A stretch of DNA of 60,408 nucleotides, from positions 1 through 60,408 of the IMG/VR virus record IMGVR_UViG_3300006198_000003; one strand, given 5' to 3'. A model generated the notes under the pieces. That model had not been told where the DNA came from, did not search any database, and saw nothing but the letters and a program-made list of their open reading frames with translations. This document shows, piece after piece, positions 124-52,448 of this stretch; the first letter of the stretch is position 1, and each line of letters starts with the position of its first letter. Both the position numbers and the translations under genes were made by a program. This DNA comes from a virus.

Positions 124-157
124 TTGGTACAACTCCCCCTAAAATCTCCTGTACAAT
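124..157 (+). promoter_or_regulatory. Conserved promoter-like motif copy P1 (TTGGTACAAC, 22-nt spacer, TACAAT)
   Basis: TTGGTA 124-129, TACAAT 152-157; same architecture at eight other intergenic sites. Confidence 0.55.
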
Positions 158-199
158 AGAATTGGGAGATTTAGGGGGATTGTGGAAAGGTGGGAGAAT

Positions 200-478
200 A
201 TGAAAGCAACGGGAATTATTCGTAGAGTTGATGATTTGGGAAGAATTGTACTCCCCAAAGAGATAAGAAGAAAATTTGGAATCACAGATGGAATTCCGAT
301 GGAGATATTTACTAATTCTGATGGGATAGTTTTAAAGAAATACAACACGTCAGAAGAATTGTTAAGCGTAGTTTCTGTTTTGGAAGAAGCTGTTGACGAT
401 TCTGTTGATGCTTTGGAAAGAGAAAAAGTGTCTGAAATTCGTGAACATATCAAAGAGATAAGAAATGTCCTGAAATAG
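200..478 (+). CDS. AbrB/SpoVT-family DNA-binding protein
   Basis: MKATGIIRRVDDLGRIVLPKEIRRKFGI matches the swapped-hairpin AbrB N-terminal domain; RBS AAGGTGGGAGA upstream of the ATG at 200. Confidence 0.85.
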   Translation: MKATGIIRRVDDLGRIVLPKEIRRKFGITDGIPMEIFTNSDGIVLKKYNTSEELLSVVSVLEEAVDDSVDALEREKVSEIREHIKEIRNVLK

Positions 479-502
479 GGGGATTGTGGATGGAAAGGGA
501 GA

Positions 503-790
503 ATGAGACTGATTGATGCAGATGAATTGATTAAGATTTTAGAAGAATATGCTAATGACAAAGACAGTCAGGCAATATATGGGGAAGAAAGATTAAGACT
601 TATTTTGGGAGACTGCAAAATTGAAATAGAAAAATTTCCTACCGCCTATGACGTGGATAAGGTTGTGGAGCAGTTGGAGGAAAGGATTAAAAACTTTAAA
701 TCCTTAAATTCTGATGATGAAATTGTTGATGTAGCTGTAAAGGAAATACAGAGGGATATTGAAATTGTAAAATCCGGCGGCATTGAATGA
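503..790 (+). CDS. hypothetical protein
   Basis: 95-aa ORF, tightly spaced after the AbrB-like gene; no recognised motif. Confidence 0.5.
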   Translation: MRLIDADELIKILEEYANDKDSQAIYGEERLRLILGDCKIEIEKFPTAYDVDKVVEQLEERIKNFKSLNSDDEIVDVAVKEIQRDIEIVKSGGIE

Positions 791-838
791 AATCAGTGAT
801 TGTATGGGTGGTATGGTAAATAGAGCGAGGAAACGGAA

Positions 839-997
839 ATGAAAATGTTGCAAGATGGCGTTGACGTGTATTGCTTGCCAGATAATGCGTATTGCGCCGC
901 AGATGAAGATAAGAGAAGTCCGCTTGACATTGATGATTGTCCTAACGGTTGTGAAGTATGTGAGGGAGATTGTTATTATTATCATGAGGATTGGTGA
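839..997 (+). CDS. small Cys-rich hypothetical protein (52 aa)
   Basis: MKMLQDGVDVYCLPDNAYCAADED...CPNGCEVCEGDCYYYHEDW; weak RBS GAGGAA; fills an otherwise empty gap. Confidence 0.35.
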   Translation: MKMLQDGVDVYCLPDNAYCAADEDKRSPLDIDDCPNGCEVCEGDCYYYHEDW

Positions 998-1087
998 TTT
1001 ATAAGGACGGTAATTGAATGGATAAGCTAACTTCAAAGCAGAAAGCAAAGGAAGATTGAAACATGATAACAGAGGATAGGTGAGTAT

Positions 1088-1611: not shown

Positions 1612-2049
1612 ATGGCTAATGTTGGCAGACCTCCAAAGTATAAAAGCAAGGAGGAAATTCAAGAGAAAATTGAACAATATTTCCAAGATTGCAAAGGGGA
1701 AATATTGAAAGATGATGAAGGAAATACAGTTTTTAATAAATTTGGAAATCCTATCATTGTTGGAGAAAAACCCTTGACTGTGACTGGACTTGCGCTTGCT
1801 TTGGGGTTTGCCAGTAGACAAGCACTACTAAACTATCAAGGGAAGAAAGAATTTAATGACACTATAACGCGCGCGAAGAGCGTTGTTGAGAAATATGCAG
1901 AAGAAAGACTTTTTGACCGTGACGGTTCAAACGGAGCGCAGTTCAGCCTAAGGAATAATTTTAAAGGTTGGGATGCGGATAAAGAAGAAACAGTAACGGA
2001 GGGAATAACCATTGTCAACAATATCCCAAAACCAAATACTGCTGACTGA
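1612..2049 (+). CDS. terS: terminase small subunit
   Basis: MANVGRPPKYKSKEEIQEKIEQYF...LTVTGLALALGF HTH typical of TerS; immediately upstream of and overlapping terL. Confidence 0.85.
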   Translation: MANVGRPPKYKSKEEIQEKIEQYFQDCKGEILKDDEGNTVFNKFGNPIIVGEKPLTVTGLALALGFASRQALLNYQGKKEFNDTITRAKSVVEKYAEERLFDRDGSNGAQFSLRNNFKGWDADKEETVTEGITIVNNIPKPNTAD

Positions 2050-3283
2050 CATAATCGCCCCGTCTTTCTATTCCGTTCACTGGGACATAGCGGAGGGCAA
2101 GCATACATATTACGACCTTTACGGCGGAAGAGGTAGTACGAAATCATCTTTCATATCCGTTGAGATAGTTTTGGGCATGATGCAAGATCCGCTCGCAAAT
2201 GCCATTGTATTCCGTAAATATGGCGTGACGCTTAGAGAATCAGTATTTGAGCAAATAGAATGGGCGATTGATGCTTTGGGAGTATCGGGCTTGTGGGCAG
2301 GATATACAAACCCCATGAGATTTGTTTACAAGCCGACAGGACAAAAGATTATCTTTCGAGGACTGGATAAAGCAAAGAAAACAAAGTCTATCAAGGTATC
2401 ACATGGATATTTTAAATATCTTTGGTTTGAGGAATTAGACGAGTTTGCCGGAATGGAAGAAATCCGTACAGTACAACAATCTGTACTCCGTGGCGGCGAG
2501 AAATTCATTGTATTTAAGAGTTTCAATCCACCAATCACAAATGCGAACTGGGCAAATCAGTATGTGAATGAGCCGCGTAACAATGCATTAAGACATAAAT
2601 CAGATTATACGACAGTGCCACAGGATTGGTTAGGACAGCAATTTATTGATGATGCTGAACACCTGGAAGCCACGAACCCCAAAGCCTATCAGCATGAGTA
2701 TTTGGGTATTCCTGTCGGACTTGGAACGAATATTTTTGAATTTCTGGAAATTCGGGAGATTACGGATGAAGAAATCAGACGGATGGACAGGCTGTATGCA
2801 GGGGTAGACTGGGGATGGTACCCTGACCCATATGCTTTTATCATGGACTATTACAATCCAAAGGAAGAAAAGATATACCTAATTGATGAAAACCGCAGGC
2901 AGAAGACAGCAAATAAAGATACTGCAAAATGGATATTGGATAATCATGGAAAGGACTTGCATGCAATGCTGTATGGAACAATCTGTGATAGCGCAGAACC
3001 TAAATCTATAGCTGACTATAGGGATTTAGGCGTGTGGAATGCAAAAGAAGCATATAAGCCGCCTGGGAGCGTGGAATATGGAATGAAATGGTTGCAGAGC
3101 AGAACAATAGTTATTGACCCGAAAAGGACTCCCCACGCACTAAAGGAAATAACGGAATATGAGTACGAGAGGGATAATGACGGGAATGTAATGTCTGGTT
3201 ATCCTGACCATGATAATCATTTTATAGATGCATTGCGTTACAGCTTATCACCTGTATTTATGCGGAGAATGACACAGGCATAA
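2012..3283 (+). CDS. terL: terminase large subunit (PBSX/Terminase_3 type)
   Basis: Walker A YGGRGSTKSS and WFEELDE Walker B-like motif; nuclease C-terminal half; TTG start overlaps the terS end. Confidence 0.95.
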   Translation: MSTISQNQILLTDIIAPSFYSVHWDIAEGKHTYYDLYGGRGSTKSSFISVEIVLGMMQDPLANAIVFRKYGVTLRESVFEQIEWAIDALGVSGLWAGYTNPMRFVYKPTGQKIIFRGLDKAKKTKSIKVSHGYFKYLWFEELDEFAGMEEIRTVQQSVLRGGEKFIVFKSFNPPITNANWANQYVNEPRNNALRHKSDYTTVPQDWLGQQFIDDAEHLEATNPKAYQHEYLGIPVGLGTNIFEFLEIREITDEEIRRMDRLYAGVDWGWYPDPYAFIMDYYNPKEEKIYLIDENRRQKTANKDTAKWILDNHGKDLHAMLYGTICDSAEPKSIADYRDLGVWNAKEAYKPPGSVEYGMKWLQSRTIVIDPKRTPHALKEITEYEYERDNDGNVMSGYPDHDNHFIDALRYSLSPVFMRRMTQA

Positions 3284-4320: not shown

Positions 4321-6060
4321 ACCTTAATCCGTGAAACTCAAACTTGTTAAATGCCTGAAAAGTCTGCGATTATGCAGTTTTGAAGAGCCAAACCAGCACC
4401 TTAAAATTCACCCATTTGGTGCGGCAAAATGGCTTAATTTTCCCACTTTTGCATTATTTTCTGGTATAATAGGGACAGCAGAAATCATAACGCGGGGGGC
4501 GGACACCAATGAAAAATATTAAGATCGAATTCACCAATGAGCGTATTATCCCGGCTTCAGGACTGGCAGTCGTAGGTGCCATCCTGGGCAAGAGCGATTT
4601 CGTAAAACGCTGCAACCGTATGGATGTCACAAAGAACCGTTCACAGCACCAGATTAAAAATGGTGACATCCTCCTTACATATATCGGTCTGCTGACTATG
4701 GGTAAACCTGCTTACGAGTCCGTCCATGAGTTTGATGATGACCAGGAGTTTTATAAGTATGCCCTTGGCATCACCAGGAGCATCCCTTCCGAGGAGACAT
4801 TACGCCAGCGGATGGATGACATTGGTGCTTCCCTGCGCCCCCAGATCCTTTCCGAGAACATAGAGATGCTCAGGACAAACGGTATTGTCCCGGGGAAGCT
4901 TCCAAACGGCTATGTTCCTGTGGATATTGATGTCACGCCTTTTGACAATTCAAAAACGCAGAAACAGGGAGTCTCGCGAACTTATAAAGGCTGCGACGGG
5001 TATGCGCCCATCATGGCATATATAGGAACCGAAGGCTACCTCATCAACTGTGAGCTGCGCGAGGGGAAGCAGCACTGCCAGAAGCATACACCGGAATTTT
5101 TGCGTGAAACGATACGTTTATGCCGCGAGATCACAAATGAACCTCTCCTTGTACGCCTAGACTCCGGGAACGATGCCGCGGAAAACATCGGCATACTGAT
5201 TGAAGCCGGATGCTGTTTCATCATAAAGCGGAACCTCCGCAGGGAAAGCAGGGAGGAATGGCTTTCCATGGCGGAATCCTGCAGCAAGGATGTCCAGACC
5301 CCCCGGGACGGCAAGACTGTCTATATAGGAAGCGACTGGAAGCCCGTCACATATAAAACACAATCCGGGGAAGAGAAAACCATTACCATCCGGACAGGAT
5401 ATGAGATTATCAACCGTACAATAGACAAGTATGGACAGTTTCTATTTCCAAATGACATCGAAGCCAACACCTGGTGGACCAACCTGGGGATGAACGACCA
5501 TGAGATCATCAGCCTGTACCATGCACATGGAGAATGCGAGCAGTTCCACAGTGAAATAAAAACAGACATGGACCTGGAACGTCTGCCGTCCGGTAAATTT
5601 GACACAAATGAGCTGGTGCTGGAGCTTGCTATAATTGCATACAATATCCTGCGCATGATAGGGCAGGAGTCCATAGGCCGCCGGGGGACGGAAACCAGAC
5701 ACAAGGTAAGGCGCCGTCGGCTGCGCACCGTGATCGGGAACATGATCATGATGGCGGGCCATGTGACAGAGCATGCCCGCCAGCTGATCATAGGGCTGGG
5801 CCGGAGCAACGTGTGGCGCTATGCATTCCAGGGAATATATACTGCATTTGCGGATTTCTATGCATAAATAAGCCTTCATACAGAAAACTTCCTGCATATA
5901 GGGGGAGTAGTGCGCCCATTTATAGGAAGATGGATAAGATTTAGCAGTATATTTCCACATTTATGCAGATTGATTCAACATTATCAAGGTACACTTTTTA
6001 CTTTTTGCCAATCTGATTGTAGATTGGCATATAAAAACAATGAGTTTCACGGATTCAGGT
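4321..6060 (+). mobile_element. IS1380-family insertion sequence (1740 bp)
   Basis: Terminal inverted repeats 4321-4340 / 6041-6060 match 19/20. 4-bp direct repeat GTTT at 4317-4320 and 6061-6064. Single DDE transposase ORF. By eye, GC content is higher than in the flanks. Confidence 0.9.
4509..5867 (+). CDS. IS1380-family DDE transposase
   Basis: N-terminus MKNIKIEFTNERIIPASGLAVVG, VRLDSGNDAAEN, YHAHGECEQFHSEIKTDMDLERLPSGKF...AYNILRMIG. Confidence 0.9.
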   Translation: MKNIKIEFTNERIIPASGLAVVGAILGKSDFVKRCNRMDVTKNRSQHQIKNGDILLTYIGLLTMGKPAYESVHEFDDDQEFYKYALGITRSIPSEETLRQRMDDIGASLRPQILSENIEMLRTNGIVPGKLPNGYVPVDIDVTPFDNSKTQKQGVSRTYKGCDGYAPIMAYIGTEGYLINCELREGKQHCQKHTPEFLRETIRLCREITNEPLLVRLDSGNDAAENIGILIEAGCCFIIKRNLRRESREEWLSMAESCSKDVQTPRDGKTVYIGSDWKPVTYKTQSGEEKTITIRTGYEIINRTIDKYGQFLFPNDIEANTWWTNLGMNDHEIISLYHAHGECEQFHSEIKTDMDLERLPSGKFDTNELVLELAIIAYNILRMIGQESIGRRGTETRHKVRRRRLRTVIGNMIMMAGHVTEHARQLIIGLGRSNVWRYAFQGIYTAFADFYA

Positions 6061-6451: not shown

Positions 6452-7918
6452 ATGGGTTTAATCGCATGGTTTAAGGAGAAGATAAAGATGTTATTTAAAA
6501 CGGACGCTGAAAAGGCTTTCGGTGTGGAAACGTACTTGTCGCCGGAAATGGACGCTGCCATTAAGCTGTGGGGGCAGTTGGAGAGCGGCAAGCCGCCGTG
6601 GGTAAAGGACGATACCAGGACTATCCGATTTTCAAACACCGTTGCCCGGGAACTGGCTAAGCTGATTACACAGAACATTGACATTAAGGTGCAGTCAAAG
6701 TATGGAACCGGAGAAACCGCCAAGAGAATCCAGAAAGCCATTGATGATTATTTCTTGAAGAATGCCCAGCGAATTATGCAAGATGTGATTATGTTGGGCG
6801 GCTCTATGGCGAAATGGAACGGTAAAGGCATGGACTACATACCGCCGGATCGGTTTCTTGTGACTGAATTTGACAGTAATGGGGAAGTGACCGGGGCGAT
6901 ATTTTTCTCATACTACCAGAAAGAAAAGAAATTCTACACACGGGCAGAATGGCACAGGTTCGAGGACGGAGAACGCCGGGACAAAGCCGGGGAAATGGTA
7001 TCAGTCCGCAGGTATAGAGTGTCTAACAAAGCGTTTGTTTCTGATAACCAGGACGAAATCGGCAGACCGACAGACCTAAAAAACACAAAGTGGGCTGATA
7101 TTGTGCCGGAGTTTACAGCAGAAAACCTTGAAAAACCTTTGTTCGTGTACATAAAGAACCCATACAGCAACACCATAGACCCGGACAGCCCATTGGGGGT
7201 ATCGTGCTTTAGCGAGTGCGTAGAGGAACTGCGCTGGCTGGATATTGCAATGTCCACGCTGGGGGTGGAAACAGAGGATTCCGAGCCAAAAATGATAATC
7301 GGTCAATCTGCGATACAGTATGCAGAAGCGAACGGAATCGAACTTCCACGAATGGTGCTCAAGACTGGACTGGACGATATGACAGACAAGCCATTTGAGC
7401 AGTGGCAGCCAACGCTACAAGTTGCGAGCCGGACAGACGGAATAAATTTCCTTCTCTCTATTATTTCTTACAAGACCGGGTTTGACTCTGGATATTTCGT
7501 CTTTAACGGTCAGACTATTTCCGTTGCTACTGCTACCCAAGTAGAAGCCACGGAACGGCGCACCATTAATACCGTTGGGGATTACCGGGACATTCTATCA
7601 TGCCCTGACAGCAACGGAGACGGGCGTATAGGGGCGATTCATGACATAGCCTATATAATGGACGCTATGGCCGTTATCAACGGGGAATCGGCTCCTAGTG
7701 AGTTTGGGAACTATGAAATATATGCTGACTTTGCAGACCTCACAAGAAACGCCGAGGAAGACCGGTCAAGGGCATTGCTACTGACGGACAAGGGATTTTA
7801 TCCTAAGTGGTATTATTTGGTACATAACGAAGGGTTTACAGAAGAAGCGGCGCGGGCTATTGTGGCAGAAGCCAAGAGCGAGAATGAGCCGAAAGAGGGA
7901 TTGTTTGGGGAGGAGTAG
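6452..7918 (+). CDS. portal protein
   Basis: 488 aa, positioned between terL and the MuF-like gene; acidic C-terminus; SPP1 gp6-like size and synteny. Confidence 0.85.
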   Translation: MGLIAWFKEKIKMLFKTDAEKAFGVETYLSPEMDAAIKLWGQLESGKPPWVKDDTRTIRFSNTVARELAKLITQNIDIKVQSKYGTGETAKRIQKAIDDYFLKNAQRIMQDVIMLGGSMAKWNGKGMDYIPPDRFLVTEFDSNGEVTGAIFFSYYQKEKKFYTRAEWHRFEDGERRDKAGEMVSVRRYRVSNKAFVSDNQDEIGRPTDLKNTKWADIVPEFTAENLEKPLFVYIKNPYSNTIDPDSPLGVSCFSECVEELRWLDIAMSTLGVETEDSEPKMIIGQSAIQYAEANGIELPRMVLKTGLDDMTDKPFEQWQPTLQVASRTDGINFLLSIISYKTGFDSGYFVFNGQTISVATATQVEATERRTINTVGDYRDILSCPDSNGDGRIGAIHDIAYIMDAMAVINGESAPSEFGNYEIYADFADLTRNAEEDRSRALLLTDKGFYPKWYYLVHNEGFTEEAARAIVAEAKSENEPKEGLFGEE

Positions 7919-11075: not shown

Positions 11076-11103
11076 GCCGCCGGTTAAATTCCGGCGGTTT
11101 TTC
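11076..11103 (+). terminator. rho-independent terminator
   Basis: GCCGCCGG-TTAAATT-CCGGCGG followed by TTTTT. Confidence 0.8.
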
Positions 11104-11113
11104 TTGAATTAAA

Positions 11114-11147
11114 ATGGTACATCTCCCTCACGCTGAAGCTGTATAAT
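11114..11147 (+). promoter_or_regulatory. Conserved promoter-like motif copy P2
   Basis: ATGGTA 11114-11119, 22-nt spacer, TG-TATAAT 11142-11147. Confidence 0.55.
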
Positions 11148-12561: not shown

Positions 12562-12587
12562 GGGGCGGCAGTGATGCCGCTCTTTTT
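12562..12587 (+). terminator. rho-independent terminator
   Basis: GCGGCA-GTGA-TGCCGC followed by TCTTTTT. Confidence 0.7.
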
Positions 12588-12597
12588 GCGCTTAACT

Positions 12598-12631
12598 TTG
12601 GTACAAATAATTTTTGAAGCTGTGGTATGAT
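12598..12631 (+). promoter_or_regulatory. Conserved promoter-like motif copy P3
   Basis: TTGGTA 12598-12603, 22-nt spacer, TGG-TATGAT 12626-12631. Confidence 0.55.
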
Positions 12632-12637
12632 GTAATC

Positions 12638-13240
12638 ACTCCGTACAAGATGAATGAACTTTCTGGATTGTTCTGTTTTACAGGATATGAAATTAGGGAA
12701 CGCGTCTTCGGAACCTGCACAGTCCTTGCAGACAGAAAATGGACATTGATCAGAATGCCGTTTGAAGTGGAGGGAACGCACGCCGCGTGATGGGCGGGTG
12801 TATGATTGTGAGTTTGGGAGCCAAAATAGCTTCGTGGGTTTTAACAATCAAAAATTAGAAGGAGGATACGGCCATGAAGAAGCGATGTTACAACCATGCT
12901 AACGTGATGGAAAATTTTGAAATCTGATCCGGCTGCGGCCCGTGGCGAATGAATCGCCAAACGTGGCATCATGTGAGATGAATCGCGGCTTTAAGAACAC
13001 GTTAAACTATGTAAGACCGCACTGCACAGCCCTTGCAGACATAAAATGGACAATCTACCTGAAGGAGACTTGAAGTCCTGCAATGCTATATAGTTTCCAA
13101 AAAACTTTATCTGTAATAGATGAGACTAGCCAGTGATTGCAGTAGTCTGGCAGTTACAGATAGTGCGCTGGAAGTGATGATCAGATTGTGAGCGTAGCGA
13201 AGCAATAATCAATCGAGGTAGTTTATAAGGCGCATATGGT
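12638..13240 (+). ncRNA. candidate large structured noncoding RNA (ROOL/GOLLD-like context; class unverified)
   Basis: No credible ORF; promoter motif upstream; runs into a tRNA-like element. Hand-verified nested helices at 13111-13159; 31-nt internal repeat at 12715 and 13022. Confidence 0.4.
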
Positions 13241-13316
13241 GGAAAGTTGTGTTATCTGGCGTGAAACTGCCGGGAGGCTAGCACCGGCGAGATAGGTTCG
13301 ATTCCTATACTTTCCA
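13241..13316 (+). ncRNA. tRNA-like element TL1 (10-nt anticodon-position loop)
   Basis: Acceptor GGAAAGT/ACTTTCC 7/7; T arm ATAGG-TTCGATT-CCTAT. Stem GCCGG/CCGGC closes the loop GAGGCTAGCA; weak 3-bp D stem. Confidence 0.55.
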
Positions 13317-13416
13317 TGCCTGGGAAGATACCACAAGAGAACTGGGTGTTGCAATCCGTCAAGAACGGTAAACGCAGGGGAGGTATCATTGGGGCGAGTG
13401 GTTATCGCTTCAAAAG

Positions 13417-13530
13417 CGGATAGTAGCTTAATGGTAGAGCCGGAGTAGGGGGCAATCCGAAACGAAAAGGAGTGCAAATATCCGTGGCTATAGTGTGCCT
13501 AATATGCAGGTTCGATTCCTGCCTATCCAT
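13417..13530 (+). ncRNA. tRNA-like element TL2 (114 nt, oversized anticodon/variable region)
   Basis: Acceptor CGGATAG/CTATCCA (C1-A72 mismatch), D arm GCTT-AATGGTA-GAGC, T arm GCAGG-TTCGATT-CCTGC; 72 nt lie between the D and T arms. Confidence 0.55.
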
Positions 13531-13869: not shown

Positions 13870-13883
13870 TTTTAGCCTTTAAC

Positions 13884-13917
13884 TTGGTACAACAATCTCA
13901 CCAAACTGCGGTACAAT
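13884..13917 (+). promoter_or_regulatory. Conserved promoter-like motif copy P4
   Basis: TTGGTA 13884-13889, 22-nt spacer, TACAAT 13912-13917. Confidence 0.55.
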
Positions 13918-14069
13918 ATAAGCATAAAAGGCATTAGGAAATGGGCGCGACATAAGGTAAGACCGAAAAAGAAAGTAGGCACTGAATATAATCAAAGACA
14001 GGAACAAATGTGAAGCGTTTTCTGCGGTACTAATGCTTTTTATAAATGTAAATCGGGAGGGATATGGAA

Positions 14070-14495
14070 ATGAAGAAGAAAATTTCAGGTGCAATTTTGG
14101 TAGTGGTTTTATTGTTTTCTTTGACGAGTTGCGGAGAACAAGAGCAAGTTGATTTTCTGAATCAGCAGATTGCAGAGTTGCAAACTCAAAAATCATCTTT
14201 AGAGGTCGAAATTACAGACCTTGAAAATATGGTTGCGCAAAAGAAAGAGGAAAACGGAACAGCAAAATATATATTGACTTTAGAAATAAAACAGACTCAT
14301 TTTACTCTGAAAATATCTGAGCATTTGAAAGATGCTATGAATGCAATAGAGATTCAGATTCCAGTAGATAAAGAATATTATGATTCTGTGGAAGTCGGAC
14401 AAAATATTGCTGATGAATTCAGAATGGGAAGTCTTGTTTTTAAAGGAACATTTGGAAATTTCAAGGTTTCCGTAATTAAAAAAGAGATTCACTAA
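14070..14495 (+). CDS. lipoprotein with coiled-coil segment
   Basis: MKKKISGAILVVVLLFSLTSCGEQ is a signal peptide plus lipobox (LTSC); RBS GGGAGGG. Confidence 0.75.
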   Translation: MKKKISGAILVVVLLFSLTSCGEQEQVDFLNQQIAELQTQKSSLEVEITDLENMVAQKKEENGTAKYILTLEIKQTHFTLKISEHLKDAMNAIEIQIPVDKEYYDSVEVGQNIADEFRMGSLVFKGTFGNFKVSVIKKEIH

Positions 14496-15144: not shown

Positions 15145-15218
15145 GGGAGATTAAAGATAACTGGAAATCGCCTAGACTCCAAATCTACGGTACGAGGGTT
15201 CGATTCCTTCATCTCCTG
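15145..15218 (+). tRNA. tRNA-Trp (anticodon CCA), imperfect
   Basis: Acceptor GGGAGAT/ATCTCCT, anticodon arm CTAGA-CTCCAAA-TCTAC (C-C at 27-43), T arm GAGGG-TTCGATT-CCTTC, 3-bp D stem, one extra nt after the acceptor. Confidence 0.6.
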
Positions 15219-22622: not shown

Positions 22623-22687
22623 TAGCTCATGAAGGAGAGCAATGCGAAAGCATACGGAACCCGGTGCAACTCTGGGCGCTTATTACA

Positions 22688-22719
22688 AGGCATGGCTTAT
22701 GGCTGTGCCTTTTTATTTT
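22688..22719 (+). terminator. rho-independent terminator
   Basis: AGGCATGGC / GCTGTGCCT 9-bp stem followed by TTTTATTTT. Confidence 0.7.
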
Positions 22720-22731
22720 GAGCAGATGAAA

Positions 22732-22755
22732 GGGCAGTAGAAATACTGCTCTTTT
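22732..22755 (+). terminator. second tandem terminator
   Basis: GGGCAGTA-GAA-TACTGCTC followed by TTTT. Confidence 0.65.
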
Positions 22756-22757
22756 AA

Positions 22758-22791
22758 TTTGGTACAACTGCTGTTTGAATCTGTGCTACCA
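22758..22791 (+). promoter_or_regulatory. Conserved promoter-like motif copy P5
   Basis: TTGGTA 22758-22763, 22-nt spacer, TGc-TACCAT 22786-22791. Confidence 0.5.
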
Positions 22792-22906
22792 TATTTACAT
22801 GGCAAGGATAGGGAGCGCACCTGAAAAGCAGTTTTGTTACCGTCCTACTGTTTCCTTGCCTATTCGATATGAGGACGGGCATTAGAGAAAGGATGGTAAA
22901 AAATAT

Positions 22907-27565: not shown

Positions 27566-27579
27566 ATATCGAAGTAAAG

Positions 27580-28576: not shown

Positions 28577-28617
28577 AGGGAATGGCACTCCAAACAGGGG
28601 GGCTTTTTCATTTTAAT

Positions 28618-32733: not shown

Positions 32734-33125
32734 TGAAGTTTGATAAAGGCATAATGATTGACGGAATATTTTTTGATATCCCCATGGTATCCCTGAAGCG
32801 TACTGGAGATTTTCTGCACAAATATGCGGAACGAAACGAAGCGGGTACTTTGATGGCGGAACTGATCGGGGTGTATTACAATTACACTCTTACAGTAGGA
32901 ACTAGTAGCGATTTCGGCGAAACAGACTATGAAGCGTTTTGGGACAAAATGACAGAACCCGTGGAGTTTCACGAAATATCAATACCTACAAAAGATGGAT
33001 ATTATACTTTTATGGGTTATATATCGAGTGTTTCAGACGAATATAAGAAAATTTTGGACAACGAAGCGGAATTTACAGGATTTACATGTAAGTTTACCGC
33101 GCAGTCTCCTGCGAGGACGCCATGA
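32733..33125 (+). CDS. putative distal tail component
   Basis: 130-aa ORF coupled to the TMP stop; synteny only. Confidence 0.3.
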   Translation: MKFDKGIMIDGIFFDIPMVSLKRTGDFLHKYAERNEAGTLMAELIGVYYNYTLTVGTSSDFGETDYEAFWDKMTEPVEFHEISIPTKDGYYTFMGYISSVSDEYKKILDNEAEFTGFTCKFTAQSPARTP

Positions 33126-38566: not shown

Positions 38567-40009
38567 ATGCCAATATATAGCGGGCAGAACAAAATAAAGC
38601 TAGCTGTCGGAGGCCAAAAAGTTAAAAAGGCATATCTGGGAAATCAGCTCGTGTATTCTGCCGGAAGTGTTGTGACATACAGGGTGGATACCGGAACTGT
38701 TTATCAAGAAGAAGTTGATGAAGGCGCATCATGCCTGTCCCCCAAGACATTTACACCATCAAAAAGCGGATGGACGTTTGTGGGATGGAGATCGGACGGG
38801 GCCGCAAGTGGAACAGTACTTACAAATAAGGTCATGGGGGATACCCCTGTTACATTATATGCGGTGTTTCGGCAAATCATAACCATTACATACTATAATG
38901 GAAATACTACAGCATCAAGCGCTTCAGGGAATCGTTACTATAATAATGGAGCGATATCTAATCCATCCTTTACCCTAATCCAGGTGGCTTTGTCTGGATG
39001 GACTGTCAGAGGGTGGAGCACTAACGGCACGGCTAACAGTGGAATTACATATAATAATGGCGTGGCTTTCACCCGGGACTCTAATGTGACCCTTTTTGGC
39101 ATGTACCAGCAAACCATTATATTGACTCTATACAATGGATCCAGCAGTGCTACAAACCAGAGCAGGACAAGATATTATTGTCCCGGAAGCGGCAGTACCG
39201 TAAATCCTGCATTTACTGTAACACCGGCTACCTTGAGCGGCTGGAGCTTTAACGGCTGGGCGGCTTCGTCTAACGCCACAGCGGCTATTGTTTACAGCAG
39301 TATATCAAACACGGTATTTTCCACCAACGCGACTTTGTACGGACGATACAGCCAAACCATCACGCTCTCTTACAATGGCAACGGTGCGTCAGGCGGCTCT
39401 ACAGCGGCCCAGACCGGCACCCGGTATTGGAACACCGGAAATTTAGCCAACCCTTCCTTCGCTCTTCGGACAAACGGCTTTACAAGAACAGGATATATAT
39501 GGACAAAGTGGGCCATGGGATCGGCTGGAGGAACGCAATACCCAAGTGGAGCCAAAGTTACTCTTGAAACAAATACTGTATTTTACGCACTTTGGGTGGG
39601 AACGCCCCATTATTTCGCACCATTAAGTAACGCCGAATGGAGTATAACCGACCAGTTTGGAGCTGACAATCATTTTAAGGTTGATACCGATAACGATAGA
39701 ATAATTGCCAGTGCTAAAGGAGTTGCCTGGACAGGGACATATGGGTATACGAACGTAAGTGCAACAATTCCCACGGGAGGATGCACTAAAGTGCGTCTTA
39801 CTGTAATGGGGCTGGGGGGAGCGCAGACTTACTATGTATATGGGATGGTAAATGATACCATTATATGCGAAACATCCCCCGCAAATCTTACATCTGTTGG
39901 ATCTGCTAATATCAATGGAAACTCTATAACTGTAACCTTGAGAATAGTGAATCCTGATAAAAACAATGCGAGTTCTGGGGCATTGACCGAAATATATTTT
40001 TACAACTAA
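38567..40009 (+). CDS. Listeria-Bacteroides repeat (Flg_new) protein, likely receptor-binding
   Basis: Four repeats of the type GWTFVGW...VTLYAVF / LSGWTVRGW...VTLFGMY / LSGWSFNGW...ATLYGRY / YIWTKW...TVFYALW. Confidence 0.7.
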   Translation: MPIYSGQNKIKLAVGGQKVKKAYLGNQLVYSAGSVVTYRVDTGTVYQEEVDEGASCLSPKTFTPSKSGWTFVGWRSDGAASGTVLTNKVMGDTPVTLYAVFRQIITITYYNGNTTASSASGNRYYNNGAISNPSFTLIQVALSGWTVRGWSTNGTANSGITYNNGVAFTRDSNVTLFGMYQQTIILTLYNGSSSATNQSRTRYYCPGSGSTVNPAFTVTPATLSGWSFNGWAASSNATAAIVYSSISNTVFSTNATLYGRYSQTITLSYNGNGASGGSTAAQTGTRYWNTGNLANPSFALRTNGFTRTGYIWTKWAMGSAGGTQYPSGAKVTLETNTVFYALWVGTPHYFAPLSNAEWSITDQFGADNHFKVDTDNDRIIASAKGVAWTGTYGYTNVSATIPTGGCTKVRLTVMGLGGAQTYYVYGMVNDTIICETSPANLTSVGSANINGNSITVTLRIVNPDKNNASSGALTEIYFYN

Positions 40010-40012
40010 AAA

Positions 40013-40046
40013 ATGGTACAACACAATAGAGAATATGAAGTAAAAT
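40013..40046 (+). promoter_or_regulatory. Conserved promoter-like motif copy P9 (upstream of the lysis cassette)
   Basis: ATGGTA 40013-40018, 22-nt spacer, TAAAAT 40041-40046. Confidence 0.5.
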
Positions 40047-40078
40047 ATAACAAATGAAGATTTGCAGGAGAAATGCTT

Positions 40079-40438
40079 ATGGAAGGAAATTACATAACAC
40101 GACAGGAGCATGATGAGTTCGCCCGACGGATAGAAGCCGAGGGGAAGCGGCGCGATGATGAAAACAAGCGCCAGAACAGCCGGATTGACACGCTGGAAGA
40201 AAACATCAAGGAAATCCATGGACTGACTGTGTCTGTGGAGCGCATGGCTGTGAATATGGAGAACATGCTTGTGGCAATTGAACGGCAGGGAAACCTGATT
40301 GAAAAGCAGAACAGCCGGATTGATGAAATTGAGAAGGAGCCGGCAAAAGACTATAAGCAGATAAAAATGGCAATTATCACGGCAATAATCGGCACCGTTG
40401 TAGGAATTGTGATTGGCGCTGTGGTTGCGCTTTTATAA
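40079..40438 (+). CDS. xhlA: XhlA-family lysis-associated protein
   Basis: ITRQEHDEFARRIEAEGKRRDDENKRQNSRIDTLEENIKEIHGL plus a C-terminal TM IITAIIGTVVGIVIGAVVALL. Confidence 0.85.
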   Translation: MEGNYITRQEHDEFARRIEAEGKRRDDENKRQNSRIDTLEENIKEIHGLTVSVERMAVNMENMLVAIERQGNLIEKQNSRIDEIEKEPAKDYKQIKMAIITAIIGTVVGIVIGAVVALL

Positions 40439-40452
40439 GAAAGGAGAATTAT

Positions 40453-40677
40453 ATGAAAAAGATTGACTGGGCAAGAAAGTTGACAAGCAGGAAGTTCTGG
40501 GCGGCTGTTGTTGGATTTGTGACGCCGCTTATGACTATGATGCAGGTGTCTGACAGCACCGCAGTGCAGGTGACGGCGCTTATCATGGCAGGAGGTACGC
40601 TGATTGCGTATATCATCGGTGAGGGCCTGACGGATGCGGCAAATACCGGATCGCAAGTACAGGAGGAAAAAAAATGA
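40453..40677 (+). CDS. holin
   Basis: 74 aa, two hydrophobic helices (FWAAVVGFVTPLM, ALIMAGGTLIAYIIG), charged C-terminus, between xhlA and the amidase. Confidence 0.8.
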   Translation: MKKIDWARKLTSRKFWAAVVGFVTPLMTMMQVSDSTAVQVTALIMAGGTLIAYIIGEGLTDAANTGSQVQEEKK

Positions 40678-41510
40678 ATAAGAAACTGATCGCCCTGGAT
40701 GCAGGGCATGGGATGGTGACTGCAGGCAAAAGGTGCCTGCAGAGCCTTGACCCAAATCAAACACGAGAATGGTGGCTTAATGATAGGATCATGGATCAAG
40801 TGCAGAGCCTGCTGGCGACATATGACTGCCAGGTGCTGCGGGTTGATGATACAACCGGGGCAAAGGACATCAGCCTTTCTGCACGGGTAAAGGCGGCAAA
40901 TTCTGCCAAAGCCAACATTTATATATCCATGCACCATAATGCCGGTTTAAACGGCAGATCCGGGGGCGGAACGGTGGTATATTACAGCTCTAATAAGCTG
41001 GAGCGGGCCGTGCAGGCTCAAAAATTGTACAACGCCATCATCCACCGGACAGGTCTTTCCGGCAACCGGAGCGAAAAGGTAGTCAAAAAGGGATTTTATG
41101 TGATCGCACACACAACCATGCCGGCGTTCCTGGTGGAAAACGGATTCATGGACAGTCCCACGGATGTGCCTGTTATTTTAAGTGACCAGCACGCGGCCAG
41201 AACCGCGGTAGCGGTGGTGGAATTTTTGGTCGATGCTCTGCAGCTCAAAAAGGTGCAGACGGTATCCGGATCACAGTCTCCTGCGGGGACAACGGTTGAG
41301 GGAAACACAGCGGACAGTGCATACTATCCTGCCTACACAGGCAAAAAAACTACGCTATCCGCCGCTATGACCAGCCTGCGGCTCAACAGTACCTATGCGT
41401 ACCGCAAAAAGATCGCGTCGGCCAATGGCATCCAGGGATATATGGGCACAGCGGCCCAAAATACGCTGATATATAATCTCCTGGTGGCAGGACGGCTGAA
41501 GAGGGCCTGA
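40674..41510 (+). CDS. N-acetylmuramoyl-L-alanine amidase endolysin (Amidase_3 type)
   Basis: IALDAGHG...ANIYISMHHNAG...VENGFMDSPTD is the Amidase_3 motif order; C-terminal putative wall-binding region. Confidence 0.9.
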   Translation: MNKKLIALDAGHGMVTAGKRCLQSLDPNQTREWWLNDRIMDQVQSLLATYDCQVLRVDDTTGAKDISLSARVKAANSAKANIYISMHHNAGLNGRSGGGTVVYYSSNKLERAVQAQKLYNAIIHRTGLSGNRSEKVVKKGFYVIAHTTMPAFLVENGFMDSPTDVPVILSDQHAARTAVAVVEFLVDALQLKKVQTVSGSQSPAGTTVEGNTADSAYYPAYTGKKTTLSAAMTSLRLNSTYAYRKKIASANGIQGYMGTAAQNTLIYNLLVAGRLKRA

Positions 41511-43331: not shown

Positions 43332-44327
43332 CTAATTAAAGAGGGCGTTCCGCAGCTTGTCGGCAGCGTCCCTCTTAGCCTTTTCCTCTTTCTCCATCAT
43401 GGAGTGCCGGTATACGGATTTCATCACATGGTCCGTCTCCCAACCGCCCATTTTAAGGATATCCGCCTCCGGTATCCCCATGGCTGACATTTGGCTTGCA
43501 AAGTAATGCCGGAGCTTGTGGAGCGGAAAGCGCGGGATCCCTAGCCTTTCCTCGACTTTCTCTAGGTGCTTTGTTATGCTGCCAGGGTGTCCCTTGTACA
43601 CATACCCCTGCTCACGTATTTGTTCGGACAGTGCTTCAGGTATGATGATGCTCCGAGTACTTTCAGTGGTCTTTGTAGTTTTGACTACCCACTCTTTCTT
43701 TGCGTTTTGCACCATGGCCTTGCTGATATGTGCGATATCCCCGTCAATATCTTCCGGTTGCAGCGCGCATATCTCTGATCGGCGCATTCCATAGCAGGCC
43801 AGAGTAATCGGAACCTCAAACGGTGTGTCCTTTACTTCTGCCAGTATCCTCTTTACATCCTCCTGAGAGGGCGTGTAAGGCTCAGATTTGACCTTTTGAG
43901 GGAGTGTGGTACTGACTTTAAGGTTCGGGCAAAAAGTCCCCAGAACAGCCGTCAAAAAGCCGTGGTAGTTGCGCACGGTCTTTGGGGACTTGCCTTTTGA
44001 TATCTCATTGACCAGCTTGTTGATTTCTATTTGTGTGATATCAGATACCGGGAGTTTCCGGAACCATTCAGGGAAGCGGTTCACATTTTCGAAGTATTCT
44101 TTTATCGTCCTGGGGGACAGGACATTTCTTTTCATGTCCACATAGCTTTCGGCAGCACGCTGGAATGTCATCTGGGTATTTGCATTCCTTATCCGTTCTA
44201 ATTCCTTCGCCATGGCAGTTATGGCCTCTTTCTGCGTGGGCTTATAATCAAAAGTCACGGTATAAATCTGCCCCTTGTACATTTTTCTGACCCGGTAGCT
44301 GTCAGGCCCTCTCTTTTCAATCTTCAT
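43332..44327 (-). CDS. int: tyrosine site-specific integrase
   Basis: ACYGMRRSE...LHKLRHYFASQM...GGWETDHVMKSVYRH gives the R...HxxR...Y catalytic pattern. SAM-like N-terminal domain. Confidence 0.95.
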   Translation of the reverse strand: MKIEKRGPDSYRVRKMYKGQIYTVTFDYKPTQKEAITAMAKELERIRNANTQMTFQRAAESYVDMKRNVLSPRTIKEYFENVNRFPEWFRKLPVSDITQIEINKLVNEISKGKSPKTVRNYHGFLTAVLGTFCPNLKVSTTLPQKVKSEPYTPSQEDVKRILAEVKDTPFEVPITLACYGMRRSEICALQPEDIDGDIAHISKAMVQNAKKEWVVKTTKTTESTRSIIIPEALSEQIREQGYVYKGHPGSITKHLEKVEERLGIPRFPLHKLRHYFASQMSAMGIPEADILKMGGWETDHVMKSVYRHSMMEKEEKAKRDAADKLRNALFN

Positions 44328-44986: not shown

Positions 44987-45745
44987 TCATTCCTCAACTT
45001 TTCCAACTGCTTTCCCAATTAGACGTACATCTTCGTTTCCCGGAATATCGTCATACTTTTTATTTCTGGAAACAAGCCCGTACGCTCCATATTCTTTCAA
45101 GAAACATTCATTATTGATAGTAAATATGCCGACTTCTCCTGGATTTATATGCTCTGTCTTTTTGACATATAATTTTTCTCCATCAGAATAGTCAGGCTCC
45201 ATAGAATCACCGTTTACCCCTATAATGAAGTCTGCGTCTGCATCCGGGGCTTCAATGGTGTCTGTTGGAATATCATCAAATATAAATCCAGTTCCGGCGC
45301 AAGCGATTTTCCCGTAATAAGCCCACAGCCTTAATGGAACAATTTCCTCCGCAACTTCCATATCCATCTTCTTAATCTTTTCCAACTGATCTTTTTGCTC
45401 CCTCAACTTCTCCGCAATAGCATACTCCCTATCCAGTACCGTATCAACCACGACTGCCCCGTCCGGGGAATATTCTGCAATAAGCCTATATTTTTTTATG
45501 ATATTTTCAAATTCTTCTGGGCTTGCTTCATTTTCATATAGTTCTCTTGTTTCGTCTTGAAATAAGTAATTTGCATCACAATGAAGAATATCAAATAAAT
45601 CATATAAAAGAGTTGCTCTAGGAGAATTAACATCTGTTTCCCAGTTTCCTATTGCTCCTTTGCTTACATTTAGCATTTCAGCAAGTTGTGGCTGAGTGAT
45701 TCCAAGAGCTTCCCTTTTTTCTTTTAGTCTTGTTCCAAAACTCAT
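44987..45745 (-). CDS. CI-like repressor (XRE HTH + S24 LexA-type peptidase)
   Basis: FGTRLKEKREALGITQPQLAEMLNVSKGAIGNWE (HTH). GVNGDSMEPDYSDGEKLYVKK...LIGKAVG (Ser/Lys S24 domain). RBS AGGAGGTG. Confidence 0.9.
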   Translation of the reverse strand: MSFGTRLKEKREALGITQPQLAEMLNVSKGAIGNWETDVNSPRATLLYDLFDILHCDANYLFQDETRELYENEASPEEFENIIKKYRLIAEYSPDGAVVVDTVLDREYAIAEKLREQKDQLEKIKKMDMEVAEEIVPLRLWAYYGKIACAGTGFIFDDIPTDTIEAPDADADFIIGVNGDSMEPDYSDGEKLYVKKTEHINPGEVGIFTINNECFLKEYGAYGLVSRNKKYDDIPGNEDVRLIGKAVGKVEE

Positions 45746-45767
45746 TTTACACCTCCTCTGTATAAGA

Positions 45768-45796
45768 ATAATACTATAAAAATCTGAGAACGTCAA
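45768..45796 (-). promoter_or_regulatory. repressor promoter (minus strand)
   Basis: Reverse complement reads TTGACG (45791-45796), 17-nt spacer, TATTAT (45768-45773). A CTGAGAA half-site lies inside the spacer. Confidence 0.6.
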
Positions 45797-48068: not shown

Positions 48069-48344
48069 ATGCCGAGAGTGGCATTGAGTCCAGAACAACG
48101 GAAGAGGCACAAGATCAAGGACTTGACAGAATGGATTAACGGGCGGATGCGCAGCAAGGGCCTGGCGCAGGCGGACATAGCAAAGGCTCTGAATATTTCT
48201 CAGGAGGCAGTTTCTATCCGCCTGAATCCAAAGACCTATGAAAGGAACATACGGGCGGATCCCTTCAGGTACGGGGACTTGCTAATAATCTTTAAATTAT
48301 TGGAAGCCACACCGGAAGAGAAGGAACGACTGCTAACACTGTAA
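48069..48344 (+). CDS. HTH DNA-binding protein
   Basis: RMRSKGLAQADIAKALNISQEAVSIRLN helix-turn-helix. Confidence 0.55.
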   Translation: MPRVALSPEQRKRHKIKDLTEWINGRMRSKGLAQADIAKALNISQEAVSIRLNPKTYERNIRADPFRYGDLLIIFKLLEATPEEKERLLTL

Positions 48345-49120: not shown

Positions 49121-49126
49121 GAAATT

Positions 49127-49863: not shown

Positions 49864-49885
49864 GAGATTGGAGGATTAGGGAAAT

Positions 49886-50917
49886 ATGGAAGAAGTGACA
49901 GCGGTAATCACGCAGGAGAGCGCGAAGATATCATGCAACTTTGAGCAGGTGGAGAAAGCGCTGCATGACAGGCTCTCAGAGTACGAGGGAGCAGTATTTA
50001 CGGAAGACAGCACGACGATAGCAAAGAAACATGTTGCAAGCCTGAGGGCGCAGAAGAAGACCTTCCAGGACAATCTTCGGGACGAGAAGAAGAGGTATAT
50101 GCAGCCCTGGGACGAGTTTGAAGCGCAGGCGAAGCGTCTGATAGCCATGTATGATGAGCCTATCAACCTCATCAATGGCCAGGTGCAGGCATTCGAGGAA
50201 AACCGCATTGCAAAGAAGAGGGAGCTTATATCCCAGATATATGAAGAACTGGTTCCAGAAGACTTGTCAGAATACATCCCTTTGAAGCGCATCTATAACC
50301 AGAAGTGGGAGAATGCCACCACGAAAGAGAAAGACATCCGGAACGAGATATCCAGTGCAGCGGAGAAAGTCCAGAAGGACATTGCCACAATCAGTGCCAT
50401 GGAGTCGGCATCAGAATCAAATGCTTTGCTGATATATCGCACGAACCTTGACCTTACAGAAGCCGTATCGCATATAAACGCTTATGAAAGGCAGAAGCAG
50501 GAAATCCTTGCCAGGGAACAGGAACGCATCCGCCGGGAGGAAGAGGAGCGCGTCCGCCAGGAAGAGCGGGAGAGGATGCTGGCGGAGCAGCGGGCCAGGG
50601 AAGAAAAGGAGGCGGCCATCCGCCAGGCAGAGATGGAGAAACAGGAAGCCTTGCGGCGGGCGGAAGAGGAAAAAGCGGAAGCCCTGCGGCAGGCGGAACT
50701 GGCGCGCCAGGAAGAAGCCAGGAGGGCAGAGGAGGAAAAGGCGGCAGCTGTAGAGCGGGCGAAGGAAGAAGCGGCACAGGAAGTGATAAACAGCCTGATC
50801 CCGGACGATGGGGATGAAACGGAGCTGTACGAGTACAGGATATCGCTTTCCGCAGATGCCAAGGAGAAGCTGGAAATGTACATGGACAGCGTAGGAATCG
50901 AATGGGAGATGATGTGA
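49886..50917 (+). CDS. DUF1351 domain protein
   Basis: N-terminal pattern ISCNFEQVEKALHDRLSEYEG...DSTTIAKKHVASLRAQKK; E/R/A-rich coiled coil; upstream of ERF as usual for this family. Confidence 0.7.
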   Translation: MEEVTAVITQESAKISCNFEQVEKALHDRLSEYEGAVFTEDSTTIAKKHVASLRAQKKTFQDNLRDEKKRYMQPWDEFEAQAKRLIAMYDEPINLINGQVQAFEENRIAKKRELISQIYEELVPEDLSEYIPLKRIYNQKWENATTKEKDIRNEISSAAEKVQKDIATISAMESASESNALLIYRTNLDLTEAVSHINAYERQKQEILAREQERIRREEEERVRQEERERMLAEQRAREEKEAAIRQAEMEKQEALRRAEEEKAEALRQAELARQEEARRAEEEKAAAVERAKEEAAQEVINSLIPDDGDETELYEYRISLSADAKEKLEMYMDSVGIEWEMM

Positions 50918-50937
50918 TGGGAGAATCTGGGAGAAAT

Positions 50938-51570
50938 ATGATTTATTCCGCAATCTGCGGAATCATGGAAGATATCGGAGTAGTTGGGAAGAACGACACG
51001 AATAAGCAACAAGGATTCAAATACCGCGGAATCGATTCGGTTATGAATGCCCTGAATCCTGCAATGATAAAGCATAAGATATTCTGTGTCCCGGAAGTCC
51101 TTGAACAGACCAGGGAGGAAAGGACGACTGCGAAAGGCGCCACCCTAATCTATTCTGTCTGCAAGATGCGATATAGGTTCTATGCCACTGACGGCTCCAG
51201 TGTCGATGCCGTGGTGGTCGGAGAGGGCATGGACAGCGGGGACAAGGCCACCAACAAGGCCATGTCCGTGGCGTTCAAGTATGCTTGTTTCCAGACTTTT
51301 TGTATACCTACAGAAGACTTGATGGATGACCCTGACGCTGATTCCCATGAAAACACTAAAAAGGTGGACAAAGGGACTTCGCAGCCAAATATTGATGATG
51401 AACGCAATAGACTGCTGGAAGAACTAAAAGGAGAGCTTGTCAGGACAGGATATGGATGGGGGGCCGTGACAAAGACCTATAAAGTTGACAGTATTGACAA
51501 TTTGACAAAGCTGCAGATTAAGGACTGCATCGCCAAAATGAAGAAGCAGCCAGATAAGGCGGCATCCTGA
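50938..51570 (+). CDS. ERF-family single-strand annealing protein
   Basis: IGVVGKNDTNKQQGFKYRGIDSVMNALNPAM...DSGDKATNKAMSVAFKYACFQTFCIPT. Confidence 0.85.
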   Translation: MIYSAICGIMEDIGVVGKNDTNKQQGFKYRGIDSVMNALNPAMIKHKIFCVPEVLEQTREERTTAKGATLIYSVCKMRYRFYATDGSSVDAVVVGEGMDSGDKATNKAMSVAFKYACFQTFCIPTEDLMDDPDADSHENTKKVDKGTSQPNIDDERNRLLEELKGELVRTGYGWGAVTKTYKVDSIDNLTKLQIKDCIAKMKKQPDKAAS

Positions 51571-52148
51571 TGAAATTCACGGCGAAAATCAAGGACATAG
51601 GCCGAACCCTGGCTGGCAGCCTGACAATAATCTTAGAAAGCCAGCAGATGGACGTAGCGGCGGCGACAGAGCTGTATCAGGCGGACGGCCTGGATGTGGA
51701 GATTAGGAAGAAACGAAAGAAGCGCAGCCTTGACGCGAATGCCTATTACTGGAAGCTTGCGTCAGAGGTGGCGGACGAGCTCCATGTGAGCAAGCCCTAT
51801 ATCCATAACTATCTATTGCGAAAATATGGCCAGATAGAGGTCATAGACGGCCAGGGCGTGTATATGGTTCTTCCAGACACTGAATCGGCGCAGAAGTCCA
51901 TAGACGAAGAGCAGACATACCATTTAAAGCCCACATCACAGGTAAAGGAGGGGAAGGGCGGCATCATGTATCGGACGTATATGATGCTGAAAGGCTCCAG
52001 CAAGTATGACACGAAGGAGATGTCGCACCTCATAGACGGTCTTGTCAGTGAGTGCAAAGAGATGGGGATAGAGACGCTTCCACCTGAGGAATTGGAAAGG
52101 ATGATGTCAGAGTATGAAAAAAGGTATAAAAAGCGTACTGACGGATGA
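51570..52148 (+). CDS. NinB/Orf-like recombination mediator
   Basis: RSLDANAYYWKLASEVA parallels lambda NinB RSLDQNRKLWACLGDVS. Confidence 0.55.
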   Translation: MKFTAKIKDIGRTLAGSLTIILESQQMDVAAATELYQADGLDVEIRKKRKKRSLDANAYYWKLASEVADELHVSKPYIHNYLLRKYGQIEVIDGQGVYMVLPDTESAQKSIDEEQTYHLKPTSQVKEGKGGIMYRTYMMLKGSSKYDTKEMSHLIDGLVSECKEMGIETLPPEELERMMSEYEKRYKKRTDG

Positions 52149-52413
52149 TTTGGAACATTGCTATATCACCGGAAGCAGCAACGTGGCAATTCACCATGTC
52201 TTTCCGGGAGCGGGGCGGAGAAGCCTTTGCGAGAAATACGGATTCATTGTTCCACTGGAACCGGCGCTGCACAATATGTCCGATGCATCCGTACATAGCA
52301 ATCCGAATACCGGACTTGACCTGCGGTTGAAGCAGGAGTGCCAAAAGTATTTTGAGGGGCATTGCGGTTCCAGGGGAAAGTTCATAGAGGTATTTGGGAA
52401 GTCGTATGTTTAA
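52114..52413 (+). CDS. hypothetical protein (possible HNH-like)
   Basis: CYITGSSNVAIHHVFPGAGRR...VPLEPALHN. Confidence 0.35.
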   Translation: MKKGIKSVLTDDLEHCYITGSSNVAIHHVFPGAGRRSLCEKYGFIVPLEPALHNMSDASVHSNPNTGLDLRLKQECQKYFEGHCGSRGKFIEVFGKSYV

Positions 52414-52415
52414 AT

Positions 52416-52448
52416 TTGGTAACTGTTAACTTTCATGCAAGTTACAAT
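52416..52448 (+). promoter_or_regulatory. Conserved promoter-like motif copy P10 (variant, 21-nt spacer)
   Basis: TTGGTA 52416-52421, TACAAT 52443-52448. Confidence 0.4.

Follow-up and report, generated by a model that had tools for sequence, protein, structure and literature searches.

In phage T4, the middle promoters carry an asymmetric MotA box where a −35 element would otherwise stand, and the host sigma factor reads the −10 element, an appropriation of sigma by MotA and AsiA that operates at many promoters per genome. In phage Mu, the late Plys, PI, PP and Pmom promoters, which depend on protein C, and the middle promoter, which depends on Mor, possess a −10 element and lack a typical −35 element; a small activator overlaps the −35 region and works with the host sigma-70 holoenzyme (PMC2582627). 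In Gram-positive siphoviruses, members of the Ltr superfamily (RinA, ArpU, LtrA, LtrB and LtrC) activate the packaging, morphogenesis and lysis genes (PMC3753634). Here we describe a 60,408-bp stretch of viral DNA (a whole IMG/VR virus record, hereafter the window) that bears nine sites of a single fixed geometry, each combining a GGTACAA box with a −10-like hexamer, and we weigh what might read them. These sites are probably phage-specific late promoters, at which sigma-A would recognize an extended −10 element and a phage factor, most likely the protein P0002 encoded at 58689–59141, would occupy the box in the place of a −35 element.

The C-dependent late promoters of Mu are the closest analog, with the MotA-dependent middle promoters of T4 also close. 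Like the C and Mor promoters, the sites described here occur several times per genome, have a −10 without a −35 element and carry a candidate activator box that overlaps the −35 region. In contrast, the C dimer binds a 16-bp imperfect dyad centered at −43.5, whereas the element here is an asymmetric 9-bp box with an upstream TTAA, together spanning −46 to −31; in addition, Pfam gave no match between P0002 and the Mor/C family, and the hosts are Gram-positive Lachnospiraceae. The sites share with T4 middle promoters a phage-specific asymmetric box in the −35 place and a high number per genome, but the MotA box is centered near −30, about 12 nt from the −10 element, and the box here ends 18 nt from it; moreover, no MotA or AsiA homolog was detected and the phage is temperate. 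P0002 resembles the Ltr activators (PMC3753634) in being small, basic and encoded at the junction of early and late genes. However, it failed every sequence, profile and fold test of membership in that superfamily, and the targets of Ltr proteins are 7-nt direct repeats that lie upstream of one terS promoter, whereas here a single box lies at −35 of each of nine sites in the window and of 3–13 sites in its relatives. Ordinary Gram-positive extended −10 promoters have the same TRTGn-TAnAAT but lack a conserved 9-bp box at −39 to −31.

The principle of a phage factor re-aiming polymerase at late promoters is familiar, but the literature we searched describes neither the box, nor the host group, nor the candidate protein family, and a full-text search for the box sequence returned only unrelated primers. 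Among the commensals of the gut Lachnospiraceae are dominant, and a late-gene switch has yet to be described for any of their phages; a late-promoter consensus with a candidate activator would allow induction and late transcription to be read directly from metatranscriptomes. If the proposal is true, the promoter and activator would also make a compact, orthogonal pair on which genetic tools for hard-to-engineer Clostridia could draw, and would add a new fold to the factors that re-aim bacterial RNA polymerase.

A motif of fixed geometry on one strand of the late region

The pattern TGGTACA-N20-TAnnnT matches the + strand of the window nine times, compared with 0.11 matches expected from 100 dinucleotide shuffles, and the − strand not at all. 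The consensus of these sites is TTTAAnWT-GGTACAA(M), followed by 18 nt and then TAnAAT with TRTGn ahead of it. When the window was scored with a position weight matrix (PWM) constructed from 50 non-redundant sites in 11 genomes (the window and the ten relatives described below), the nine sites scored 28.6–40.2 bits and nothing scored between 12 and 28 bits. The exact 9-mer TGGTACAAC occurs seven times on the + strand, with a −10 hexamer at the identical distance in six of the seven. Eight of the nine sites fall in the non-coding part of the genome, approximately 9–15% of its length (p below 1e-5), 20–180 nt upstream of start codons preceded by a ribosome-binding site, and in all eight the T of TGGTAC lies exactly 27 nt from the first base of the −10 hexamer.

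An earlier note on this DNA had listed nine + strand sites, all of them intergenic, and eight of these are borne out by pattern, spacing and PWM score. The remaining one, at 52416, does not belong to the motif: it scores below 12 bits, lacks the CAA of the box and is differently spaced. A site at 33631 had been overlooked, and this one is not intergenic but sits inside a tail gene. The 22-nt spacer reported after TTGGTA is equivalent to the 27-nt distance given above and holds at the eight confirmed sites. Other details needed correction: the hexamer coordinates 22758/22786 were one base too low, two GGTACAA copies described as 28 bp apart are in fact separated by 24 bp, and GGTACAAT, reported in the −10 regions of P4 and P8, is indeed present at P4 (13885) but has its second occurrence at P7 (28619).

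We aligned sixty non-redundant sites from the 11 genomes to define the anatomy of the motif. TTTAAnWT-GGTACAA(A/C) lies at about −46 to −31, with the box itself at −39 to −31; a variable spacer follows, and then TRTGn and TAnAAT at about −17 to −7. In this alignment TRTGn stands directly ahead of TAnnnT, as in host sigma-A extended −10 promoters (T at −17 in 35/60, R at −16 in 49/60, T at −15 in 35/60 and G at −14 in 35/60). This downstream half, which we take to be the TRTGn extended −10, or −16 region, of Gram-positive sigma-A promoters, looks like an element read by host sigma-A. The upstream half does not resemble TTGACA at any allowed spacing, and no TTGACA-like hexamer lies at 16–18 nt. 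The box is asymmetric and strictly oriented, and its position at −39 to −31 suggests that a phage factor most likely replaces −35 recognition. Sigma-54, extracytoplasmic function (ECF), SigI and sporulation-sigma consensus sequences were discarded as misfits in both spacing and sequence, and no host regulon was found.

Many of the sites have a good TRTGn-TAnAAT that could work without a −35 element, and they lie where mosaic modules and accessory islands meet. Both observations would suit ordinary constitutive extended −10 sigma-A promoters without a dedicated regulator, the box then being a UP-like or architectural element or a module boundary spread by recombination. We consider this quite unlikely. 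An A/T-rich UP element needs far less constraint than is seen here, with nine invariant bases set at a constant distance from the −10 element, the sites are confined to the late region whereas the early and lysogeny arc uses TTGACA-type promoters, and lysis and virion promoters that were always on would be harmful in a prophage. Canonical TTGACA-TATAAT promoters, which the earlier note had mentioned, are indeed present in other parts of the window, with 16- or 17-nt spacing, such as those at 25597 (+), 25927 (−), 45828 (+) and 48560 (−).

Four of the eight intergenic sites (11115, 12599, 22760 and 28619) come directly after a clear terminator, so that the previous description of most sites as following a terminator was overstated. 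Since the late region is broken by terminators, transcription would be restarted by a promoter copy before each block. We therefore picture a late region that terminator-ended accessory islands would split and that would be re-primed ahead of the packaging genes, the accessory genes, a noncoding RNA (ncRNA), the head region, the tape-measure and tail genes and the lysis genes; in this way a mosaic phage with such islands could keep its late genes expressed. If the sites do fire, and fire late, host RNA polymerase with sigma-A would use the extended −10 half, and a phage factor from the early operon, most likely P0002, would sit on the box and supply the missing upstream contact, either by class II-type activation or by appropriating sigma region 4.

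Strand specificity alone would fit an RNA-level or replication signal equally well, and the gene of the candidate regulator directly precedes the first site, an arrangement like that of lambda Q and PR'. The motif could in that case be something other than a promoter, such as a Q-like antiterminator loading site, an RNA processing signal or a replication or packaging signal. This is very improbable given the −10 hexamer at fixed distance and the placement of sites after terminators and before genes with ribosome-binding sites. Antitermination would, in addition, make re-initiation after every terminator needless, and nothing suggests a regular spacing of the sites along the genome.

Distribution among related phages and host chromosomes

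Ten related phage genomes, which we retrieved via the P0002 protein, carry 3–13 sites each. These lie without exception in the late region and, with few exceptions, on the gene strand. In the five complete and related genomes among them (G001–G005) there are 7–13 sites each, with 46 on the gene strand and none on the opposite strand, and a reversed control pattern matched once. Genomes whose P0002 homologs are only 39–62% identical (G010–G014) still carry 3–9 sites each. In all genomes compared, the P0002 gene and the lysis module bound the region that contains the sites, and the lysogeny and early arc has none. Across 59 related loci, sites of 20 bits or more are all on the gene strand. Individual promoters are recognizable from genome to genome, namely those after the minor head protein gene, before the ORF-free stretch (ORF, open reading frame), before the tape-measure gene and before the lysis genes. 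Divergent, back-to-back motif pairs that share an A/T-rich upstream region were seen in one genome (G011, loci L230–L232, at 27316/27446 and 30625/30654 in reoriented coordinates) and constitute the main exception to the single-strand rule.

The internal site at 33631 provides a further view of conservation. In three diverged homologs of its tail gene the codons of the box and the −10 element are synonymously invariant, and about two thirds of the other amino-acid-conserved codons of the gene vary, which suggests selection on the DNA itself beyond the needs of the protein. An in-frame Shine-Dalgarno sequence and ATG follow at 33782, and it is possible that a 353-residue C-terminal isoform of the tail protein is separately transcribed and made from there.

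Searching viral contigs for the motif first, instead of for P0002, retrieved mainly chance single matches. The strong match G316 carries a P0002 homolog; the provirus G315 is degraded, has a single P1-like site and lacks a P0002 homolog, and the other strong matches are fragments of insufficient length to judge.

In three host genomes of 4–5 Mb the motif clusters in the prophage alone, with 6, 8 and 11 sites there compared to 1–2 elsewhere, the same as a control, and in 300 other Lachnospiraceae genomes the stringent pattern occurs at background level. Recurrent host matches were rejected as a regulon, being located inside IS3-type transposase and SecDF coding sequence. The clustering in prophage, with background elsewhere, makes a host regulon unlikely. 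Taken together, the sites plausibly constitute a conserved, phage-private promoter class whose regulator would come from an unstudied protein family. The earlier suggestion of a phage-specific program, with an activator or alternative factor acting on the box, gains from these comparisons, and that the sites act as promoters is something we infer from the DNA sequence.

P0002 as the candidate reader of the box

The P0002 gene follows the replication genes and, read across the circular junction, precedes P1 and the packaging genes by about 1.3 kb. All-versus-all clustering of ORFs from the 11 genomes yielded nine universal families, of which eight are structural (portal, two minor head proteins, adaptor and tail completion among them) and the ninth is P0002, the only non-structural family present in 11/11 genomes. 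In about 28 of the 33 related loci with enough flanking sequence, the first site is on the same strand as the P0002-family gene and at most about 1.4 kb downstream of it, and in two genomes (G013 and G014) it abuts or overlaps the end of that gene. This association, by conservation and by linkage to the first site, makes P0002 the most likely reader of the box and favors the protein at 58689–59141, which the earlier note had named as one candidate regulator. The other, the AbrB/MazE-like protein at 200–478, was dropped for want of a homolog in any of the ten motif-bearing relatives. The flanking genes P0001 (57905–58477) and P0003 (59138–59893) are not conserved among relatives either.

One genome, G095 (contig 12; loci L219 and L245; about 21.8–25.4 kb), carries its P0002 homolog downstream of terL. 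We rejected it as a counter-example to the linkage, as sites are present upstream of terL and of the P0002 homolog itself; the second of these sites lies about 250 nt upstream of the aligned P0002 match and has GATAAT as its −10 instead of TAnnnT. In the related locus L206 the motif is about 35 nt upstream of the P0002 open frame.

The N-terminus of P0002 is Cys-rich and is absent or replaced in many relatives, and the conserved part is a C-terminal domain of about 95 residues (about 51–150) with five helices. AlphaFold (AF2) models the full-length protein with a predicted local distance difference test (pLDDT) score of 88 and the C-terminal domain with a pLDDT of 96.7 and a predicted template modeling (pTM) score of 0.88. 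The family comprises about 120 clusters at the 50% identity level and is widespread in Lachnospiraceae prophages. It has no sequence relative in Pfam, NCBIfam or the PDB, and none of 81 family members has a Pfam match to RinA, ArpU, Sigma70_r4, DUF1492 or LtrC. As a positive control, RinA scores 5e-61 in NCBIfam and matches TIGR01636, ArpU and sigma70-ECF, whereas P0002 matches nothing. A Foldseek search of a viral library returned only uncharacterized gut siphovirus proteins. The region-4 helix-turn-helix (HTH) of ArpU/RinA type previously ascribed to P0002 is accordingly not upheld by either profile or fold. The C-terminal domain also ends open frames of about 385 residues in G003 (L144:2405-3574:-) and G004 (L145:13044-14195:+), without a Pfam match; these may be either real fusions or upstream extensions of the ORF.

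The box lies exactly at the −35 place, where it can be written as TACAAC with an 18-nt spacer, and it is asymmetric and single-copy, as would fit a monomeric reader. ECF-type −35 elements resemble the AAC end of the box. These features raise the alternative that P0002, or another phage protein, is a minimal sigma-like specificity subunit that takes the place, on the core enzyme, of sigma-A or of its region 4. We judge this rather unlikely, since the conserved domain of P0002 has just about 95 residues and no sequence or fold similarity to sigma regions 2 or 4, and since the −10 half bears the TRTGn signature of sigma-A regions 2 and 3. As for a phage-encoded sigma-70-family factor with regions 2 and 4, a six-frame search of the window found no sigma-70 or ArpU family gene; TIGR02937 gave just a 12-bit HTH fragment at 48156–48224, within a gene that lacks conservation among relatives.

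Several observations weigh against P0002 as an activator of sigma-A promoters. The similarity searches give no hint of such a role: an hhalign comparison of P0002 with RinA returned a probability of 0.15%, profile searches showed no resemblance to RinA, ArpU or sigma region 4, and Foldseek against the PDB gave no match (best E 3.6 with the full model, 4.7 with the C-terminal domain), leaving P0002 without a recognizable DNA-binding fold. Family members also occur apart from the motif, which is missing from the 81 kb around a member in G036 with about 50% identity in the C-terminal domain and an identical RTDFYGIRR, and from the 46 kb around a second copy in G006. A de novo search for an alternative motif of fixed geometry near the distant P0002 genes (the second copy in G006, and those in G036, G259 and G308) found none. 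Because the comparison genomes were retrieved by way of P0002 and have the structural module in common, co-inheritance could mimic a functional link, and the box barely changes as P0002 falls to 39% identity, meaning that there is no covariation of protein and DNA. Finally, extended −10 promoters can function without an activator.

The near-invariance of the box alongside diverging P0002 proteins, the family members without a motif and a fold with no hint of DNA binding could also be accommodated if a host factor, either an alternative sigma or a Lachnospiraceae transcription factor, read the box and P0002 had some other role at the early/late junction. We think this unlikely: a host regulon should leave sites in the host genome, but the 4–5 Mb host chromosomes have none outside the prophage beyond the control level and the 300 further genomes of the family are at background. 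P0002 acting with host sigma-A thus remains the reading we prefer. A broader proposal, put forward tentatively as having nearly as much for it as against it, is that the P0002 family is an unrecognized class of phage late-transcription factor, whose five-helix domain would read the GGTACAA box in place of a −35 element and redirect host sigma-A polymerase to 8–13 late promoters. Such a factor would be a Gram-positive counterpart, with a new fold, of Mu C and T4 MotA.

Genome context and individual sites

The window represents a temperate phage of mouse-gut Lachnospiraceae. Its exact 63-bp terminal repeat (1–63 = 60346–60408) is an overlap which indicates a circularly closed assembly and a complete circular genome. 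The late genes run from terL through the portal gene (6452–7918) to head, connector and tail genes and the tape-measure gene (Table 1), with lysis genes at 40073–41510. A lysogeny module follows leftward (integrase, 43332–44327; CI-like repressor, 44987–45796), and the early genes (Erf, NinB-like, RusA, replication initiator and primase-helicase) are rightward. The nearest relatives are mouse-gut Lachnospiraceae prophages in Acetatifactor, Eubacterium sp. 14-2, a Hungatella metagenome-assembled genome and the complete chromosome CP143549.1. A near-identity search against deposited phages found nothing similar except a terminase fragment.

Table 1. Putative late promoters of the window and the gene of the candidate reader. 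Scores are from the PWM; G-numbers are related phage genomes.
Feature	Coordinates	Strand	T of TGGTAC	Score (bits)	Context
P1, putative late promoter	117–157	+	125	36.5	Box 125–133, −10 hexamer 152–157; upstream of AbrB/MazE-like gene 200–478 and packaging genes (terL 2012–3283)
Putative late promoter	11107–11147	+	11115	28.6	Before GIY-YIG gene (ATG 11171; Pfam match); terminator 11076–11098 directly ahead
Putative late promoter	12591–12631	+	12599	33.8	Before ORF-free stretch (candidate ncRNA, tRNA-like elements); terminator hairpin ~12562–12587 ahead; near-identical copies in G001, G003, G004, G005, G006, G008
P4, putative late promoter	13877–13917	+	13885	37.2	Before 14064–14495 and head-gene region; −10 region GGTACAAT; kept in G003, G004, G005, G006, G008, G010, G011
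Putative late promoter	22752–22792	+	22760	40.2	Before AntA-domain gene 22907–23617 (AntA Pfam match); two terminators ahead, 22687–22711 and ~22731–22757
Putative late promoter	27573–27613	+	27581	32.7	Before AntA/ORF6C gene 27791–28576 (Pfam matches)
P7, putative late promoter	28611–28651	+	28619	39.7	Before small ORFs and tape-measure gene 29476–32733; −10 region GGTACAAT; homolog precedes tape-measure gene in G001, G002, G003, G005, G006, G008
Internal site	33623–33663	+	33631	30.1	Within tail gene 33122–34843
Putative late promoter	40006–40046	+	40014	31.2	Before lysis cassette (40079–40438, 40453–40677, 40674–41510); sites at the equivalent position in G001–G004
P0002, candidate reader	58689–59141	+			150 aa, isoelectric point 9.3

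A Lar-like ORF starting at 59934 spans the circular junction. Between terL and the portal gene lies a + strand ORF of 452 residues (4509–5867), and since no late-type site separates it from the portal gene, portal expression would depend on read-through from P1.

P1 is surrounded by a 22-bp imperfect palindrome (129–182), in which the spacer pairs with the first ~20 transcribed bases and the arms bracket the −10 element. As RNA it would fold with −28.3 kcal/mol (z −3.35). The palindrome is kept in most P1 homologs and absent in G004, and it could be an operator or a structure formed only in read-through transcripts. The idea that the C-rich spacer is an anti-Shine-Dalgarno element was discarded, the hairpin being significant at P1 alone and not at the other promoters.

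The ORF-free stretch after the 12599 promoter covers 12632–13530. Rfam tRNA models score 38.6 bits at 13417–13530 (114 nt) and 32.8 bits at 15146–15217 downstream of this promoter, and ARAGORN calls no tRNA. A promoter of the 12599 type also stands ahead of ORF-poor DNA in G001, G003, G004 and G005.

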